From positions 512,001 to 576,000 of the forward strand of contig CAWGRW010000009.1 of the NCBI GenBank assembly GCA_963825135.1: DNA of 64,000 nucleotides, written 5' to 3'. The DNA is from an uncultured bacterium. Lineage in GTDB: Bacteria; Desulfobacterota_D; UBA1144; Nemesobacterales; UBA2774. This document shows, piece after piece, positions 40,301 to 49,300 of this stretch. The first letter of the stretch is position 1; the number at the start of each line of letters is the position of its first letter. The position numbers were made by a program.

Positions 40301-43300
40301 AGCGCGTATTCGGCATACCCGCGCCCAACTACTCAGCCATTCAACTAGACTCTATAAAGGCGTCAAAGCACTACTGGTATGTCGATAATTCAAAGGCGGT
40401 CAGGGAACTCGGCTTCTCTACGAGGCCGCTTGAAGAAACAATAGAAAGCACAGTAAAGTGGTTCAAGGAAAACGGTTATCTGTGAATTTAAGCGTTCACC
40501 CTTGTTTGTAACCATTATCCCGTTAATATAGACTCTTGTCATGCCCGGAAATTCATTCGGACAACCTGTTTCGTATCACGACATGGGGCGAGTCCCACGG
40601 TCTGGCGCTCGGCGTAGTCATAGACGGCTGCCCGGCGGGTCTCGAGATATCGAAAGAGGATATACAATTCGAGCTCGACCGCAGGCGCCCCGGACAGAGC
40701 AGGATAACCACGCAAAGAAAAGAATCTGACAGCGTCGAGATTCTCTCAGGCGTATTCGAGGGAAAAACGCTCGGCACGCCTATCTCGCTCATGGTCAGGA
40801 ACGAGGACGTTATTTCCAAATCCTACGAGGATATTAAAGACACGTACCGGCCCGGACACGCCGATTATACGTACGACGCGAAATTCGGCATAAGGGATTA
40901 CAGGGGCGGCGGCAGGTCTTCGGCAAGGGAGACGGTTGGAAGGGTCGCCGCGGGGGCGGTCGCAAAAAAGATCCTGAATATGAACGGTATAAATACATAC
41001 GGGTTCGTCAGGCAGGTCGGACGGATCGCGGCAAAAAAAATAGACCTCGACGAGATAGAGAGGAACATAGTGAGATGTCCCGATGCCGAAAAGGCCGCCC
41101 AAATGATTGAGCTGATAGAAAAGGTGAGGAAGGAAGGGGACTCGGTCGGCGGCACGGTGGAGGTAATTTCGAAGGGACTTCCGGCGGGTCTCGGGAATCC
41201 GGTATTCAATAAGCTGGACGCTGATCTCGCTTCGGCGCTTATGAGCCTCGGGGGAATAAGGGGGTTCGAAGTAGGCATGGGCTTCGAAGCGTCCAAAAAG
41301 AAAGGCTCTCAGGTGAACGACGTAATGTATAAAGACAAAGCTGGAAGCCTCAGGTTTAAAACGAATAACGCGGGCGGTCTCCTTGGCGGGATTACGAACG
41401 GCGAGGACCTCGTCGTGCGAATCGCCATCAAGCCTACTTCTTCCATCTCCAAGGTTCAGCATACCGTAGATAAATACGGCAACCCGAAAGAGCTCAAGGT
41501 AAAGGGCAGGCACGACCCGTGCCTATGCCCGAGGGCAGTGCCTATAGCAGAGGCGATGGTAAACCTCGTTCTCGCCGATCATCTGCTCATGTCCAGAGTC
41601 GCGAGGATTTAAATCCCCGCAGATCGATAAGTGCGGAAATGCATTCTCTCGCCCCCGGCAGTGTTTCCCACCGCCCATTTCATATAACCTATTGAAACAA
41701 AAAACAAATTGCACTAAACTTGCAAAAAGGGTTAGTATCCTTCCGAAATGGCAAACTATCCGAAAGGGTAGGACGCAAAGCCTCAAGCCTAAGGACGCCT
41801 GAGCGGTGTCTAGGGCGGTTGGGTTGCCGAAGAACGTATACTTGCAATAATTCTAATAATCAAGGATTATTATGGTAGAGCTATAAACAAATATATTAAC
41901 AATGTTAAAGAACAATGCTAAAATAATTTTTTGAGAGGGGGATCCGAATAATGGGGATAATAATCCGAGAATCGAAAGAACGGAGAAGGCATGAAAGAAT
42001 CCCTGTGGATTTTCATGTCTATTCGAAAAATTCCGGCAAGAAGATCGGGCAGGCGAAAGACCTCTCGTATAAAGGGCTATTCATACAAACTGAAGACGAG
42101 TTCAAGCCGGGAACTAAGCTCCTTCTCGAGTGTGATTTATCAGGCACGTTTCCCATCAAGGCCTACTGTGAAGTAAAGAGGCACGAAACAAACGGTACCG
42201 GCGAGCACGGTATCGGGGTCGAATTCATAAACATATACGATTCGGACAGGACGAAGTTAGAGAGCTATATCGAGAAAAGTAAAAATACCCTCAACTCCGA
42301 CGACTATTATCTATCCGACTTCGCGGACATCCCGGACGAGGACCTCTTTAAAAAGGCCGAAGTATTCTGGCAATACGGACTGGACATGGCGTCGAAGGGA
42401 TACATCAGATACAGAAGACCCCTGGCGTCGCCCTCGGCGCACAGAGTGATCATCGACGACGACTTCACCGGAAAGAAAAAAGAGATGATCATGATGGGCA
42501 GCAACAACTACCTCGGGCTCACATCCCATCCGAGGGTTATGAAAATAGCCAAAGAAAATATCGATAAATACGGCGCAGGCGCAGGCTCGGTGCCGCTCCT
42601 GGCCGGGTCGTTCGACATACACAGGCGGCTGGAGATGAAGCTGGCCGAGCTCAAGGGCGCAGAGGACGCGATAATCTTTCCGAGCGGATACGTTACGAAC
42701 CTCGGATGCATACAGGCGCTTGTTAAAAATGAGGACCTCGCGGTCATAGACAGGCTCGCCCACGCGAGCATCATCGACGGCTGTATGCTGTCCTCAGGCA
42801 CATTCAGGACATTCAAGCACTCGGACGTCCGGAGCCTCGAAAACGTATTAAAAAGAAATAGAGACAATTTTAAAGGAAGGATAGTTATAGTCGACGGCGT
42901 ATACAGCATGGACGGGGACATAGCCCCTCTCAGGCAGATCGCCGAGACGGCCCACAGGTACGGCGCCAAGGTTATGGTGGACGAGGCTCACGCCACAGGT
43001 GTCATTGGGGACAGGGGCAAGGGAACTCCCAGCCATTTTAAAATGAAGCCCGGAGAGATAGATATCGTTATGGGCACGCTGAGCAAATCCCTGGGCGGCG
43101 TCGGCGGATTCATAGCTTCGACGAAAGAAGTAGTGAGCTACCTGAGGTACTACACCAGGTCCTTTTTCTTCTCGTCCAATTTCCCCCCTTCCGTCGCGGC
43201 CTCGGTACTGGCCGCGATCGAGGTAATGGAAACGGATAAATCCATCCACGAAAACCTCTGGAAGAATATCAAGCACATGAAGGAAAACCTGAAATCAATG

Positions 43301-46300: not shown

Positions 46301-49300
46301 ATCGCTCATCATTCCGCTTTTTTTCAAAAAACAACTCATCGGCTTCATAGCCCTCGGAGAAAAGAAGTCCGGACTCTCGTACACATCACGGGACGTGAAA
46401 CTCCTAAAGCTTCTCGCAAACCAGAGCGCTATAGCCATAGAAAACGCGCTCGCATTCAAGCTCGTCGAGGACTACGCCAAGAAGCTCGAAAAAACGAATA
46501 AGGAGCTCAAGGATGCGCAGATGCAGCTCGTGCATGCTGAAAAGATGTCCGCGATCGGACAGCTTGCCGCGGGCGTTGCCCACGAGATAAGGAACCCGCT
46601 GAACATCATCGAAGGCGCCAGGTACTACATCTCCACCTACATGATGGACAAAGAAAATACGGAGGTCGTCGGAGAGTACCTCGACTACATAAAACACGAG
46701 ATCGACAGGACGAACCGTCTGATAGACAGCCTGCTCAAGTTCTCAAAAGCCGAGCCGCCCTATTTCGAGAGGGTTAATATAAACAGCGTGCTCGAGAACG
46801 TCGTTATCCTCGTACGCAAGCAGCTCTCGGACAACAACATCAACCTCACCCAGAACCTGGACGAGAACATCCCTCCCATAATGGCGGACCCGAACCAGCT
46901 CTGGCAGGTATTCATAAACATTATTTTAAACGCGATACAAGCGATGCCGAAAGGCGGAGACTTCGTAATAGAGACTTCTACGCGCTGGGACGAATTCGCC
47001 AGCGGGGACTCCGGACACGTCTACATACATTTCAAAGACTCCGGAGTGGGAATAGATAAAGAAGACATGATGAGAATCTTCGATCCGTTCTTCACAAAGA
47101 AAGATATGGGGACGGGACTCGGGCTTTCGATAGCCTACAAGATCATCGAAAAGCATAAAGGAAGAATAATAGTTGAGAGCGAAAAGGGGCAAGGAACGGT
47201 ATTTACGATTGAACTTCCGTCAAATAACTATAATATTACTTCAGGAGAGGTTGATGACGAACACGAAAAAGAGGGTGCTGGTTGTTGACGACGAGCTCCT
47301 TATATTGAAAATCATTTCCGACATCCTGACCAAGGAGGGGTATGAAGTCGTAGTCGCCAATAACTGCGAGAAAGCGACCGAGTACCTGAGGGCGTCCAAT
47401 TTCAATGTAGTCTTGTCCGACATCAAAATGCCGGTAAAAAGCGGTATCGACCTTCTTGAGGAAATAAAGAAGAAAGACCCGAATATCCCCGTAATACTTA
47501 TGACCGGATTTGCTTCGTTGGAAACAGCGGTTGAGGCAGTACAGAACGGAGCCTTCGATTACCTCATTAAACCACTCGACTACGGGAAACTCAGGAGCGT
47601 CATAGACCACGCAGCCGATAGATTCGAACTCCACAGCGAAAACACGCGCCTGCTGAGCGATTTGAAAGAGCTGAACACGAATCTTGAATTGAAGGTCCGG
47701 GAAAGGAACAGGCAGCTTGAGAATACGCTGAATAGTACGATAGAGAGCATAATCACAACCGACAGGGACCTGATAATAGAATCAGCGAACCCGAAGACCT
47801 CGGAAATTTTCGGCAGAAGCTGCGTGGGCGAAAAACTGAGTCTCTTATTTCAGGGTGTTAATTTTGACACAATTATTCCAAACATTCTAAGCGACCCCTC
47901 ATATTCGACGAAGCACGAAATAAGATACGACAATAAGTTCCTCGAAGTTAGCCTGTCGCCCCTGATCGATTTTGAGACGAAAGAAATTTTCGGCGTGATA
48001 GCAGCGACGGAAGACATAACGGAGAAGAAGAAGCTCGAAGCGCAGCTCATACATTCCGCGAAGATGTCGGGTGTCGGCCAGCTGGCCGCCGGCGTCGCAC
48101 ACGAATTCAATAATATCTTGTCAGGCATCATAGGCTACACGAGCCTCGCGCTCACGAGGCAGGACCTGGACAGCGTCAGGAAAGACCTGAGAGTAATCGA
48201 GAAGGCCTCCGACAGGGCGGTCGAGATAGTGAACAAACTCCTTTCCTTCTCAAGACAAAAAGGGGAGAAATTCCAGGTCGCACAGATAGAGAGCATCATA
48301 GACGACGCGCTCGGACTCGTTGAGCACAACTTCGAAACGGAGGGTATAAGAATACTCAGGAGTTACGAAAAGGTCCCCGCCATCCGATTGAATCCGGGGG
48401 AGATACAGCAGGTGTTCCTGAACCTCGCGATCAACTCGAAACACGCCATGCCTAAAGGCGGAGCGATAGCGATCAGCACGAAGCTCTCCGGCAATTATGT
48501 GAGAATCGATTTCTCCGATACGGGCATTGGCGTATCACCGGAGAACCTGCCCAGGATATTCGAACCCTTTTTCACGACAAAACTGAGCGAGGGCACAAAA
48601 TCCGGCACGGGTCTCGGTCTGTCGGTAATATACGCGATCATAGAAAGACACGGCGGGCGCATCGAAGTATCGAGCGAGGTCAATAAAGGCACGACGTTCA
48701 CGATTCACCTGCCGAACATTCAGGCCATTGCCAAAACTCCCGAGATCGAGCCCGCTCAGAAAGTACAGAACGCCAAAGTAATCGAAATGAGGCGAAAAGG
48801 GAATGTCTTGATAGTCGATGACGAAGAATTCATCAGAGATATCGTAAGTGATTGCCTTTCCAGCACCGGACACAATGTTATGACGGCTGAAAGCGGCGAC
48901 CAGGCGATCGAGCTCATAAAGAGGAATCATTTCGACATCACGTTCCTCGATTTCTCCATGCCTAATAAAAGCGGTCTCGAACTTCTGAGAGAAATAAAAG
49001 TTATCGATCCCAACTCCACGGTGGTAATAATAAGCTCGAGACCGGAAGAGCAGCTCCCGGACGAGCTTTCGGACGAGGGCTCGTACAATATAATTAAGAA
49101 ACCGTTCTCGGTCGACCAGATTCAAAACGCGGTCTCCAGGGTTCTTGGGGCCGAGGCGATGAGCAGATAATAAAGCGCGACGGAATATGGAAGACGCTCC
49201 TTCTTTTTACTGCAAAATATTCGTAAACGAAAACGAGATATATTCGGGAGACTTCGGGGAAGTCCCCGAGAAGTTCAGGACCGGCATGGTCAGGGACCTG

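Follow-up and report, generated by a model that had tools for sequence, protein, structure and literature searches.

CqsA and LqsA are PLP enzymes of the alpha-oxoamine synthase (AOS) family that condense an amino acid with a fatty acyl thioester, and a polytopic membrane histidine kinase encoded beside them reads the product. Enzymes gated by a PilZ domain are also known, cellulose synthase BcsA being an example. CqsA/CqsS of Vibrio and LqsA/LqsS of Legionella are alpha-hydroxyketone systems (PMC3376566, PMC3285556). In the ceramide pathway of Caulobacter and other bacteria, the AOS step is followed by an N-acyltransferase, which works on the 3-keto base before reduction (PMC11087976, PMC11324152, PMC10191378). 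Neither c-di-GMP control nor kinases are described for this ceramide pathway in the literature searched.

Locus layout and leader

We analyzed a 64-kb stretch of DNA (the window) from a UBA2774 family genome in which a survey had reported a riboswitch 5' of a PilZ/AOS/tandem-GNAT gene, with two histidine kinases 3' of it. Rfam, Pfam, and open reading frame coordinates confirmed this arrangement, which has the following features.

41692..41720, + strand: promoter-like site TTGAAA-17-TAAACT, 5' of the aptamer (consensus scan 9/12; putative function)
41740..41831, + strand: c-di-GMP-I riboswitch aptamer (RF01051), full model 1-87, 78.2 bits, E 1.1e-13
41841..41925, + strand: conserved, AT-rich leader block that holds promoter-like hexamers plus a further conserved stretch
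41951..44707, + strand: fusion gene, 918 aa, with PilZ at aa 10-108, AOS at about aa 140-535, and tandem GNAT at aa 539-918
41978..42274, + strand: PilZ domain (PF07238) with RxxxR (R12..R16) and DxSxxG (D37..G42)
42368..43555, + strand: AOS (PLP) domain, Spt-related subfamily (from PDB match and trees)
43565..44704, + strand: tandem GNAT N-acyltransferase domain of a ceramide-synthase-type family, own subfamily (from AF2, fold match, and Spt co-occurrence)
44715..47288, + strand: HK1, with TM1, an outer domain of ~95 aa, ~8 more TM (aa 134-402), GAF, HisKA, and HATPase_c
47254..49170, + strand: HK2, a hybrid kinase with REC, PAS, HisKA, HATPase_c, and REC (alternative start 47173)

The fusion gene and HK1 are separated by 7 nt, and HK1 and HK2 overlap by 35 nt, the HK2 start having been set at ATG 47254 behind GGAGAGG. 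By Pfam annotation and synteny, the cassette lacks genes for an exporter, a carrier protein, or acyl activation.

The aptamer (gathering score 35) was the only feature of the window to reach an Rfam gathering score, and 119 nt separate its end from the ATG at 41951, which reproduces the score and the ~120-nt distance first reported. Compensatory changes occurred at 7 of 30 predicted pairs among 15 aligned leaders. A homologous aptamer lies 5' of the fusion gene in 16 of 17 family loci, and the 17th locus begins at a contig end; conservation of the riboswitch upstream was therefore upheld, with a count that differs from the 17 of 18 given before. The genome holds 10 c-di-GMP-I riboswitches but only 2 PilZ domains, and the other riboswitches sit before typical targets, namely, genes for pilus, secreted, and cell-wall proteins.

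Across the aligned leaders (n = 15), the upstream TTGAAA/TAAACT hexamers are conserved, with a mean column identity of 0.86 and 10/32 columns invariant. Between aptamer and gene, the first part of the leader block carries TTGCAA (41842-41847) and, after 17 nt, GATTAT (41865-41870), and it is more conserved (mean column identity 0.91, 21/34 columns invariant) than the aptamer (0.85); a second conserved stretch spans ~41879-41925. No conserved RNA structure was found in 41841..41925 in the 15 aligned leaders, nor was a terminator, and neither the leader scan nor the leader alignment yielded an expression platform for the riboswitch. No such block was found after 7 other riboswitches of the same genome. 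Judging from its hexamers, this promoter-like block could let transcription bypass the riboswitch.

Domains of the fusion protein and the kinases

The three Pfam matches in the survey's finding were reproduced: PilZ at 10-108 (1.4e-14), Aminotran_1_2 at 178-520 (7.9e-57), and Acetyltransf_1 at 791-901 (2.4e-10). The PilZ domain scored 54.7 bits against a cut-off of 22.5. Its motifs, described earlier as intact, are present in the translation (RRHER, aa 12-16; DLSYKG, aa 37-42), and both are kept in 12/12 aligned PilZ domains from fused and split forms. The protein has no membrane-spanning hydrophobic segment. We counted 85 rows of relatives at E<=1e-150, where 81 had been given; sources label relatives of the protein "glycine C-acetyltransferase." The relatives include P0243 (PilZ+AOS+FemAB_like) and P0283 (AOS+FemAB_like).

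The AOS domain matched 7poa (9.2e-88), serine palmitoyltransferase (Spt; 3a2b/8guh, 1.5e-84), KBL (1fc4, 1.6e-82), BioF (1bs0, 1.5e-62), and CqsA (5.8e-35, the weakest match listed), in the same ranking as originally obtained. The 7poa alignment covers aa 37-392 of the AOS piece searched, and this best solved relative carries a BioF/KBL annotation. Scores with the KBL, BioF, and Spt models were about equally high (395.3, 389.7, and 378.9 bits), and neither the AOS nor the GNAT part reached any NCBIfam equivalog cut-off, those for KBL, BioF, and Spt included. The CqsA model gave the lowest score, 207.6 bits versus a cut-off of 428, which rules out membership in the CqsA family. In two unrooted trees, the AOS clustered with Spt, apart from KBL, BioF, and ALAS, with moderate support (89/95 and 92). 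We read the central domain as a complete, Spt-related AOS. The sister clade of PilZ-AOS consists of fusions of AMP-binding, carrier protein, and AOS domains (acyl-AMP ligase type). The AOS and GNAT parts each form their own subfamily outside the Spt-linked clades. The survey's reading of a Spt/KBL-like AOS with a GNAT thus holds for the relationship to Spt but needs qualification in that both parts form separate subfamilies that reach no equivalog cut-off. The one further AOS of the genome clears the BioF cut-off (455.4 > 426.45), in agreement with the separate BioF noted before.

The C-terminal part was modeled as a tandem GNAT (AF2 pLDDT 94.9, pTM 0.91), a far better model that confirms the two GNAT-like lobes proposed earlier, and fold comparison gave VIA Z scores of 25.7 to 7q3a, 23.6 to 5kf1, and 22.0 to MshD 1ozp. 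The family has 6316 representatives at E<=1e-3. Its profile matched 21 of 301 Pseudomonadota, among them all 15 with Spt above the cut-off, and because of this co-occurrence we regard it as the ceramide-synthase-type N-acyltransferase family. In five loci, Spt equivalogs lie within ~10 kb of a family member, and metagenomes contain operons of a reductase, a Spt-like AOS, and a GNAT. AOS-GNAT fusions arose at least twice with the same domain order, in a Spt-like clade (P0158) and in the present clade. Sphingolipid producers carry this tandem-GNAT family together with Spt, and the C-terminal domain is a member of it. Co-occurrence, co-localization, and repeated fusion lend comparative support to the earlier suggestion that the AOS may form an alpha-aminoketone that the GNAT would N-acylate. 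GNAT activity is not assured, since the CoA loop in the window reads K-G-R-R-I-G, which deviates from the R-G-R-G-I-G of relatives, a stretch that we take to be the GNAT CoA-loop motif.

The N-terminal 432 aa of HK1 had no Pfam match at E<=1, and the sensor matched no described ligand-binding family in Pfam. HK1 aa 130-835 aligned with the HisKA_7TM-GAF kinase of metagenome contig L169 (27% identity, 3e-71).

Distribution of the cassette

Of 32 other UBA2774 genomes, 21 contain the fusion gene, intact or fragmented, and exactly these also contain the HK1 sensor (21/21); presence across the family was thus borne out, the earlier count being 18 of 32. Genera g1, g2, g5, g6, and g7 carry the cassette, and g3 (0/10) and g4 (0/1) do not. 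The cassette is cleanly missing from the other genomes at its site between aroC and the gene that follows; g3 retains c5, c9, and c7 as flanking genes, and there c9 comes directly after aroC. These results show that the riboswitch, the fusion gene, and both kinases are one indel cassette, gained or lost as a block. We found no dedicated reductase for it. An HpnA-like SDR lies two genes upstream and belongs to the genomic backbone, because it is kept in cassette-less g3 (9/10) and absent from cassette-bearing g7 (0/3).

We compared 15 loci from other families of the same phylum. The AOS adjoined the HK1 membrane part in 15/15, HK2 was present in 14/15, and a GNAT was present in 5/15; the single locus without an HK2 call is cut by a contig end, and in the other 14 HK2 adjoins HK1. 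The invariant core across the phylum is therefore PilZ-AOS, a 7TM-GAF kinase, and a REC-PAS hybrid kinase. To call the kinases neighbors, as the survey had done, understated their status as invariant partners. The GNAT failed as a constant partner, being missing from 10/15 loci and, at 1e-10, from anywhere in those 10 genomes. In its place were extended SDRs (L280, L287), a Zn-dehydrogenase with threonine-dehydrogenase-like matches (L283; 5kia, 2.6e-25), and N-methyltransferase-like SAM enzymes (L282, L288). In an independent lineage, L169 encodes, in a row, PilZ-AOS, PilZ-GNAT, a HisKA_7TM-GAF kinase, a REC-kinase, and a PAS-GGDEF-EAL protein, and L170 has the first three of these genes. Adjacency and co-inheritance of AOS and HK1 persist from 27-32% identity upwards (15/15, 21/21, L169/L170). 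Double gating by c-di-GMP, as claimed before, holds within the UBA2774 family but not in general: 9 of the 15 outside loci have no riboswitch, and in L279, L282, and L283 it lies 3' of the AOS gene, directly 5' of downstream genes and HK1.

Proposed function and comparison with known systems

The cassette would put a fatty amino-ketone synthase under c-di-GMP control, always with two sensor kinases, and from this constant pairing we propose a novel type of unit that would both make and read a signal. Sequence comparison and the analogy to CqsA/CqsS leave us evenly divided on whether a c-di-GMP-controlled mobile cassette makes, and probably reads, a signal derived from a fatty alpha-aminoketone. 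The AOS would form an alpha-aminoketone by condensing an amino acid and a fatty acyl thioester of medium or long chain. In this genome the fused GNAT would immediately N-acylate the free amine, so that the product would be an N-acyl aminoketone of "oxidized ceramide" type; in sister lineages, the ketone may be reduced or the amine N-methylated instead. C-di-GMP would enter twice: through the leader RNA it would control the entire operon, and through the PilZ domain the activity of the enzyme. The hydrophobic product might be sensed in the membrane by the polytopic HK1 sensor and passed on to HK2, as in the CqsA/CqsS and LqsA/LqsS pairs. One point against a signal is that, for both enzyme parts, the closest characterized relatives are enzymes of membrane lipid synthesis. 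Also weighing against the proposal are the distance from the CqsA family, the unmatched HK1 sensor, the lack of an exporter, carrier protein, and acyl-activating gene, the altered CoA loop, the possible bypass of the riboswitch and its absence from 9/15 outside loci, and the moderate tree support.

The main rival, which we consider rather unlikely, builds on those relatives: the fusion would combine the first two bacterial ceramide steps (Spt, bCerS) in one protein and make an oxidized-ceramide-like membrane lipid at high c-di-GMP, for instance for a sessile envelope; the kinases would then watch over or adjust the envelope instead of reading a signal. Homology links the two domains to the Spt/bCerS pair, whose families co-occur and co-localize, and in relatives of the AOS this domain is joined to an acyl-AMP ligase and a carrier protein. 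The published Caulobacter order is Spt, bCerS, CerR, with Spt and bCerS cytoplasmic (PMC11087976), and the fusion likewise lacks a membrane-spanning segment. However, both domains fall outside the Spt-linked clades and below the Spt cut-offs, the cassette contains no lipid transport or head-group genes, and no dedicated reductase was found, the SDR two genes upstream belonging to the backbone. The absence of the GNAT from 10/15 modules and their genomes excludes a two-chain lipid as the conserved output.

It is improbable that the kinases merely share a c-di-GMP-controlled operon without sensing the product, perhaps feeding back on c-di-GMP turnover. The riboswitch position in L279, L282, and L283 and the PAS-GGDEF-EAL gene that ends the L169 row would fit such co-regulation, and the GAF and family-specific extra outer domain of HK1 could take other inputs. 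The adjacency of AOS and HK1 nevertheless exceeds what shared regulation usually preserves, and the synthase and kinases stay while tailoring genes vary. An ordinary metabolic role, with the AOS as a regulated KBL or second BioF and the GNAT acetylating a small aminoketone or an unrelated substrate, seems very improbable. The KBL and BioF model scores, the 7poa annotation, the names of relatives, and the dehydrogenase beside the L283 AOS speak for it. Against it, the AOS reaches no KBL or BioF cut-off and stands apart from KBL, BioF, and ALAS in both trees, acyl-AMP ligase and carrier protein domains occur in its nearest relatives, the genome has another AOS that does clear the BioF cut-off, and no tdh or bio genes occur in the cassette. 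Nor would a housekeeping role account for the PilZ domain, the riboswitch, and kinases that are always present.

Our signaling proposal draws on CqsA/CqsS and LqsA/LqsS as analogs in that the AOS adjoins a multi-TM kinase in every locus examined. Unlike CqsA, the present AOS lies outside the CqsA family and carries PilZ, to which a tandem GNAT is added in this genome; its partner sensor, a HisKA_7TM-like/GAF kinase, has a second kinase of hybrid type behind it, the unit includes a c-di-GMP riboswitch, and the predicted product is N-acylated rather than a hydroxyketone. The ceramide pathway is comparable through family context, as this GNAT family co-occurs with Spt and forms reductase-Spt-like-GNAT operons. 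It differs in that here both steps are fused, both parts are separate subfamilies, the Spt cut-off is not reached, no dedicated reductase was found for the cassette, and the GNAT is dispensable in sister modules.

MshD (1ozp), MAB_4324 (7q3a), and glucosamine N-acetyltransferase (5kf1) share the two-lobe fold along the full length of 380 residues (Z 22-25.7) at an identity of 13-15%, and context points to a fatty aminoketone rather than a sugar or thiol as GNAT acceptor. The AOS-FemAB_like fusions (P0243, P0283), presumably of the Mycobacterium BioF2 type, also join an AOS and a two-lobe acyltransferase on one chain, but their acyltransferase belongs to PF04339 and not to the present GNAT family. 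The survey had also proposed the first PilZ-controlled PLP enzyme; no precedent appeared in the literature searched, and priority is not provable. The aptamer and the PilZ domain with both motifs are canonical, as in known c-di-GMP systems. In contrast to BcsA-type enzymes, the PilZ domain here is fused to a PLP-dependent enzyme that forms C-C bonds, L169 has a separate PilZ on each of two enzymes (AOS and GNAT), and the present operon brings both c-di-GMP effector types, riboswitch and PilZ, together.

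The riboswitch, the PilZ domain and the synthase

We annotated the leader and first gene of the cassette, and these features are needed for what follows.

41740 to 41831, + strand: c-di-GMP-I aptamer (RF01051, 78.2 bits against a gathering score of 35, model positions 1 to 87 of 87)
41841 to 41925, + strand: AT-rich leader block between the aptamer and the start codon, marked by column identity across leaders and by promoter-like hexamers
41951 to 44707, + strand: fusion gene, 918 aa (Pfam PilZ at aa 10 to 108, Aminotran_1_2 at aa 178 to 520, Acetyltransf_1 at aa 791 to 901)

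The survey's finding of an RF01051 aptamer at 78.2 bits, a fusion of PilZ, alpha-oxoamine synthase (AOS) and GNAT domains, and two kinases was reproduced with small differences in the figures. The aptamer was the sole Rfam match in the 64-kb window to reach its gathering score, and it ends 119 nt ahead of the 918-aa open reading frame (ORF). A conserved promoter-like site, TTGAAA-17-TAAACT, lies 5' of it. Among 15 aligned leaders, compensatory changes on both sides occurred in 7 of 30 predicted pairs, all 7 inside the aptamer, and no conserved RNA structure or helix was found 3' of the aptamer; a scan of the leader found no terminator-like site downstream of it. The AT-rich block had a mean column identity of 0.91 versus 0.85 for the aptamer and contains TTGCAA and GATWAT, 17 nt of variable sequence apart, with a second conserved stretch after them. 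Seven other riboswitches of the same genome are not followed by such a block, which may serve either as an additional promoter that carries an operator or as an expression platform of an unusual kind. We also considered a UGCA helix pairing sequence before and after the aptamer and dropped it, since it lacked covariation and would fall within the promoter.

Of 17 loci from the window's family, UBA2774, 16 have the aptamer 5' of the gene. Outside the family, L289, L291, and L293 (the same locus as L059) have it ahead of the fused gene; in L279, L282, and L283 it comes after the AOS gene and before the genes that follow; and in 9 of 15 loci it was not found. No riboswitch was detected in loci L060 and L169, even at E≤1. 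The window's own genome (G000, 3.1 Mb) has 10 c-di-GMP-I riboswitches versus only 2 PilZ domains, and RNA therefore seems to be the main c-di-GMP receptor there. The genes after six other riboswitches of this genome (L162 to L168) encode a CBM96 protein, a subtilase, PilM, an SLT/SPOR transglycosylase, a GSDH-like protein, and a secreted-looking protein without an assigned family.

PilZ domains bind c-di-GMP through RxxxR and D/NxSxxG motifs. The fusion PilZ (PF07238, 54.7 bits against a cut-off of 22.5, aa 10 to 108) carries R12..R16 and D37-x-S39-x-x-G42, and both motifs were retained in all 12 aligned domains. No membrane-spanning segment was predicted in the fusion protein.

The middle domain can be placed in the AOS family on its sequence, by similarity over its full length (best solved match 7poa, 9.2e-88 over aa 37 to 392 of a 396-aa piece) and by HASIIDG, D-x-x-H, and T-L-S-K stretches, conserved in AOS enzymes, that are identical to or aligned with those of 7poa. 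The domain reached no NCBIfam equivalog cut-off, including that of the CFB-type serine palmitoyltransferase (Spt) model (378.9 bits versus 640).

Table. Scores of the fusion AOS on NCBIfam models (bits; cut-off)
Spt, NF047600: 378.9; 640
Spt, NF047599: 344.9; 500
Spt, NF047603: 290.7; 670
KBL, NF005394: 395.3; 460
KBL, TIGR01822: 334.9; 493
BioF, TIGR00858: 389.7; 426.45
BioF/Kbl subfamily, TIGR01825: 409.3; 535.4
CqsA/LqsA autoinducer synthase, NF005526: 207.6; 428

In control genomes, the Spt-beta equivalog model was over its cut-off in Caulobacter and, unexpectedly, in E. coli.

A tree of 36 rows (IQ-TREE, LG+C20) grouped the fusion-type AOS domains with support of 100/100 and separated them, together with the Spt clade, from KBL, BioF, ALAS, and a BioF-like "ADJ" group at 89/95; a quick tree of 42 rows gave the same split with an SH-aLRT of 92. 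In both trees the fusion AOS lies beside, not within, the Spt clade. The sister of the PilZ-AOS clade in the 42-row quick tree (support 89) consists of ∼1,125-aa proteins (P0270, P0273, and P0290) that have AMP-binding, PP-binding, and AOS domains according to precomputed Pfam lists, and this architecture favors fatty acyl thioesters as the likely acyl donors of the AOS. Another relative, P0158, has a Spt-like AOS (539 bits, CFB model) fused to a GNAT of the other GNAT clade, and thus the AOS-GNAT fusion arose at least two times with an identical order. The AOS relative P0287 has REC in place of PilZ, and P0243 and P0283 have a FemAB-like domain in place of GNAT.

The tandem GNAT domain and its association with Spt

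The C-terminal part of the fusion is predicted to be a tandem GNAT with two lobes over the whole domain. The survey had described two GNAT-like lobes here, and an AlphaFold2 model built from an alignment of 53 relatives (pLDDT 94.9, pTM 0.91) bears this out, matching tandem GNAT structures over its whole length. VIA-align gave Z scores of 25.7 to MAB_4324 (7q3a; 305 residues, rmsd 3.2), 23.6 to the glucosamine N-acetyltransferase 5kf1, and 22.0 to each of MshD and the clavulanate tandem GNAT, and Foldseek concurred (5kf1, E 1.6e-15). By sequence, matches to solved structures were of a generic GNAT kind and confined to the second lobe, and the ESM Atlas matches were "GNAT family" clusters only. 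Bacterial ceramide synthase (bCerS), characterized in Caulobacter as CC_1154 (CCNA_01212), is reportedly also a GNAT-type protein.

A profile of the C-terminal part, run against 1.84 billion representatives, matched 6316 proteins at E≤1e-3, of which 949 reached E≤1e-30; the best 150 of the 6316 matches are mostly stand-alone proteins of ∼360 to 400 aa. Architectures among 18 scanned representatives included AOS-GNAT without PilZ (P0048, P0158, and P0162), PilZ-GNAT (P0035, P0042, and P0052), and GNAT-GNAT (P0017). In an evenly drawn sample of 301 Pseudomonadota genomes, the window's GNAT profile had full-length matches in 21 (1e-63 to 1e-123; the G033 copy is in frameshifted pieces). The Spt model NF047599 was above its cut-off in 15 genomes of this sample, and all 15 were within the GNAT-bearing 21. 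We fetched 19 of the Pseudomonadota GNAT loci with ∼10 kb on either side. An AOS was present in 8 of these, and 5 of the 8 passed Spt cut-offs, L134 on the Spt alpha model (835 bits) and L131, L127, L129, and L130 on the Spt beta model (528 to 677 bits); an SDR adjoins Spt in 3 of the 5. In the remaining 3 of the 8 (L139 to L141), BioF-like AOS genes lie immediately beside the GNAT.

Among 80 metagenome GNAT loci, only 37 of which are at least 9 kb long, an AOS was seen in 20 and the same broad kind of SDR in 12. For six AOS fragments from rows of the type SDR-AOS-GNAT or AOS-GNAT, CFB-type Spt was the best model (502 to 544 bits). All 14 SDRs that were tested had HpnA as their best model, with OleD or SdmB among the next; both are families of lipid 3-keto reductases. 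As published, the bacterial ceramide pathway is a trio of Spt, bCerS, and the reductase CerR, in which the 3-keto base is acylated prior to reduction (PMC11087976, PMC11324152, PMC10191378, PMC11334938). Because the co-occurrence with Spt and the SDR/AOS/GNAT rows match this trio, the window's GNAT family is probably a ceramide-synthase-type acyltransferase family, an assignment made by association with Spt.

In a 49-row quick tree with a midpoint root, the fusion GNAT clade (support 100) fell across the deepest split from the Spt-linked clade (support 99), which also includes PilZ-GNAT proteins and P0158. The fusion GNAT is thus outside the Spt-linked clade and not orthologous to Spt-linked GNATs in this tree, and it constitutes a separate subfamily.

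Two further settings of the tandem GNAT were observed. In a third pairing (L139 to L141, L198, L203, L210, and L230), a BioF-like AOS clade adjoins the tandem GNAT in genomes without Spt, and some of these loci have an SDR on the opposite strand. In Clostridia (L076, L082, L091, and L092), stand-alone tandem GNATs lie beside a FemAB/Acetyltransf_6-like protein and a methyltransferase, with as many as four genes for B12-binding radical SAM proteins adjacent. The arrangement resembles an unrelated cluster for a lipid or a natural product.

Inheritance of the cassette in the family and the phylum

Two histidine kinase genes lie 3' of the fusion gene. HK1 starts after a 7-nt gap, and HK2 overlaps HK1 by 35 nt if its start is the ATG at 47254 behind GGAGAGG. 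HK1 (857 aa) has one transmembrane segment, a ∼95-aa outer stretch, about eight more transmembrane segments up to aa 402, and then GAF, HisKA, and HATPase_c domains; its residues 1 to 432 matched no Pfam family at E≤1. HK2 has the order REC-PAS-HisKA-HATPase_c-REC.

At 94% completeness, the window's assembly totals 3.13 Mb over 17 contigs. The fusion, whole or as pieces at contig ends, was found in 21 of the 32 other family genomes, with all genomes of genera g1, g2, g5, g6, and g7 carrying it, compared to 0 of 10 in g3 and 0 of 1 in g4. The sensor part of HK1 (aa 1 to 432) was present in exactly the 21 fusion-bearing genomes. In G011, a g3 genome, the gene c5 (14630 to 15610), a gap of the size of aroC, c9 (16752 to 17105), and c7 (17139 to 17414) follow one another, an order that shows the riboswitch-to-HK2 stretch to be cleanly missing. 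In G006 (contig C10; L021 and L040), which belongs to the window's genus, the cassette has 48 to 50% identity versus 87% for c5 and 72% for c9, which suggests that a distant version has taken the place of the original cassette at the same site. The fusion and HK1 of G009 (contig C30; L009) have 7 and 8 in-frame stops, respectively, in a genome with 7% contamination, and they point either to decay of the cassette or to a faulty assembly.

The small genes c9 and c7, which follow HK2, were rejected as backbone genes, each being present in 31 of 32 family genomes. A reductase candidate lies upstream.

39502 to 40485: c5, HpnA-like extended SDR gene (350.3 bits on TIGR03466, just below the cut-off of 367.65)

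The next-best families of c5 are SdmB and OleD, both lipid 3-keto reductases. Its TIGR03466 score, the lack of a hopene cyclase, which was not found in its own genome, and similar SDRs in reductase-AOS-GNAT operons all favored c5 as a CerR candidate. We rejected c5 as a CerR-like reductase of the cassette, because among the 26 of 32 family genomes that have it, it is kept in the cassette-free g3 (9 of 10) and missing from the cassette-bearing g7 (0 of 3).

Across the window's GTDB phylum, a poorly known and uncultured one with 120 genomes in the collection, cassette-type PilZ-AOS was found at 1e-100 in 35 genomes. We fetched 15 loci outside the family for comparison. The membrane part of HK1 adjoins the AOS in all 15, and HK2 adjoins in 14, the 15th ending at a contig end. 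A GNAT was present at 5 of the 15 loci, and the tandem GNAT was absent genome-wide at 1e-10 from ten genomes whose loci are GNAT-less (the same profile gave 8.7e-129 in the window's own genome). The interval between AOS and HK1 varied.

Table. Content of the AOS-HK1 interval
L279, L281, L284, and L286: no ORF of at least 80 aa
L280 and L287: extended SDR (6jkg, 4.1e-33, and 3wj7, 1.4e-25, respectively)
L283: Zn-dehydrogenase (1e3j, 1.5e-27)
L282 and L288: SAM methyltransferase nearest phosphoethanolamine N-methyltransferases (2.2e-12 and 6.7e-13, respectively)
L285 and L287 (262 aa): ORFs without an assigned family

The enzymes of the interval would modify an alpha-aminoketone at its amine or its ketone. 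On a distant metagenome contig, L169 has a row of PilZ-AOS (matching aa 10 to 531 of the fusion protein at 32% identity), PilZ-GNAT, a HisKA_7TM-GAF kinase (matching HK1 aa 130 to 835 at 27% identity, 3e-71), a REC-kinase, and, last, a PAS-GGDEF-EAL gene (13610 to 15601) that hints at possible feedback on c-di-GMP; L170 has the first three genes of this row. From the kinase adjacency at 15 of 15 and 14 of 15 loci, the GNAT at only 5 of 15, and the rows of L169 and L170, the constant unit is the synthase with its kinases, and the tailoring step differs between loci.

At L059/L293, which has the split form, an AOS without PilZ is followed by an unassigned 554-aa gene and then by a stand-alone GNAT, with the riboswitch retained. 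The only match of the 554-aa protein (L059, 5949 to 7613) is a weak one to TIGR04551 (82.3 bits).

Interpretation and comparison with known systems

We read the cassette as a synthase, licensed by c-di-GMP, that makes a fatty alpha-aminoketone; the product would be N-acylated in this genome and read by the co-inherited kinases, and we hold this reading with about as much belief as doubt. The main rival, which we consider unlikely, is that the product is a structural ceramide-like lipid. The probable ceramide-synthase-type family of the GNAT and the place of the AOS beside Spt can be set on its side, and the separate GNAT subfamily and the GNAT-less loci on the other. A further rival, that the genes are co-regulated and the kinases do not sense the product, we hold to be somewhat less likely still; the constant adjacency of AOS and HK1 and the exact co-occurrence of the HK1 sensor part with the fusion point to a closer tie. 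Ordinary KBL or BioF metabolism is very improbable: the fusion AOS scores below the cut-offs of the KBL and BioF models and is apart from KBL and BioF in both trees, and the single other AOS of the genome exceeds the BioF cut-off.

Returning to the licensed synthase, we propose, tentatively, a wider claim, that such cassettes form a new family of signal systems in which a c-di-GMP-licensed, Spt-related synthase makes a fatty alpha-aminoketone signal that is diversified by lineage and read by 7TM-GAF and hybrid kinases. Licensing by c-di-GMP would act via PilZ, plus the riboswitch in some lineages. Lineage-specific enzymes would then diversify the signal, by N-acylation in the window genome and by N-methylation or ketone reduction elsewhere, and the dedicated 7TM-GAF kinase and the hybrid kinase would read it back. 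The second-messenger state would thereby be coupled to lipid-like auto- or intercellular signaling, possibly with feedback on c-di-GMP.

Known c-di-GMP targets include motility, adhesins, polysaccharides, and pili. Our searches of the open literature found no paper tying PilZ or c-di-GMP to AOS enzymes, Spt, sphingolipid-type chemistry, or autoinducer-type synthases. If our reading is true, PLP-dependent C-C bond formation would join the short list of enzyme activities directly gated by PilZ, an input from a second messenger would be demonstrated for lipid or signal synthesis, and the large, unassigned HisKA_7TM-type kinase family would get a candidate ligand class. The cassette is compact, with four parts in ∼7.5 kb, and its natural variants with and without each part are ready-made controls. 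The ∼375-aa tandem GNAT family, with its 6316 representatives, tracks Spt and could be used as a marker for bacterial sphingolipid producers.

Compared with the bCerS/Spt pathway, the cassette shares a homologous acyltransferase family that is Spt-associated in Pseudomonadota, but the fusion GNAT lies outside the Spt-linked clade and the fusion AOS falls below the Spt cut-offs. The cassette resembles the CqsA/CqsS synthase-sensor pair in that an AOS gene and the gene of a polytopic membrane histidine kinase lie side by side and are inherited together. Unlike CqsA/LqsA, the window AOS scores far below the cut-off of the model for those synthases (207.6 versus 428 bits).
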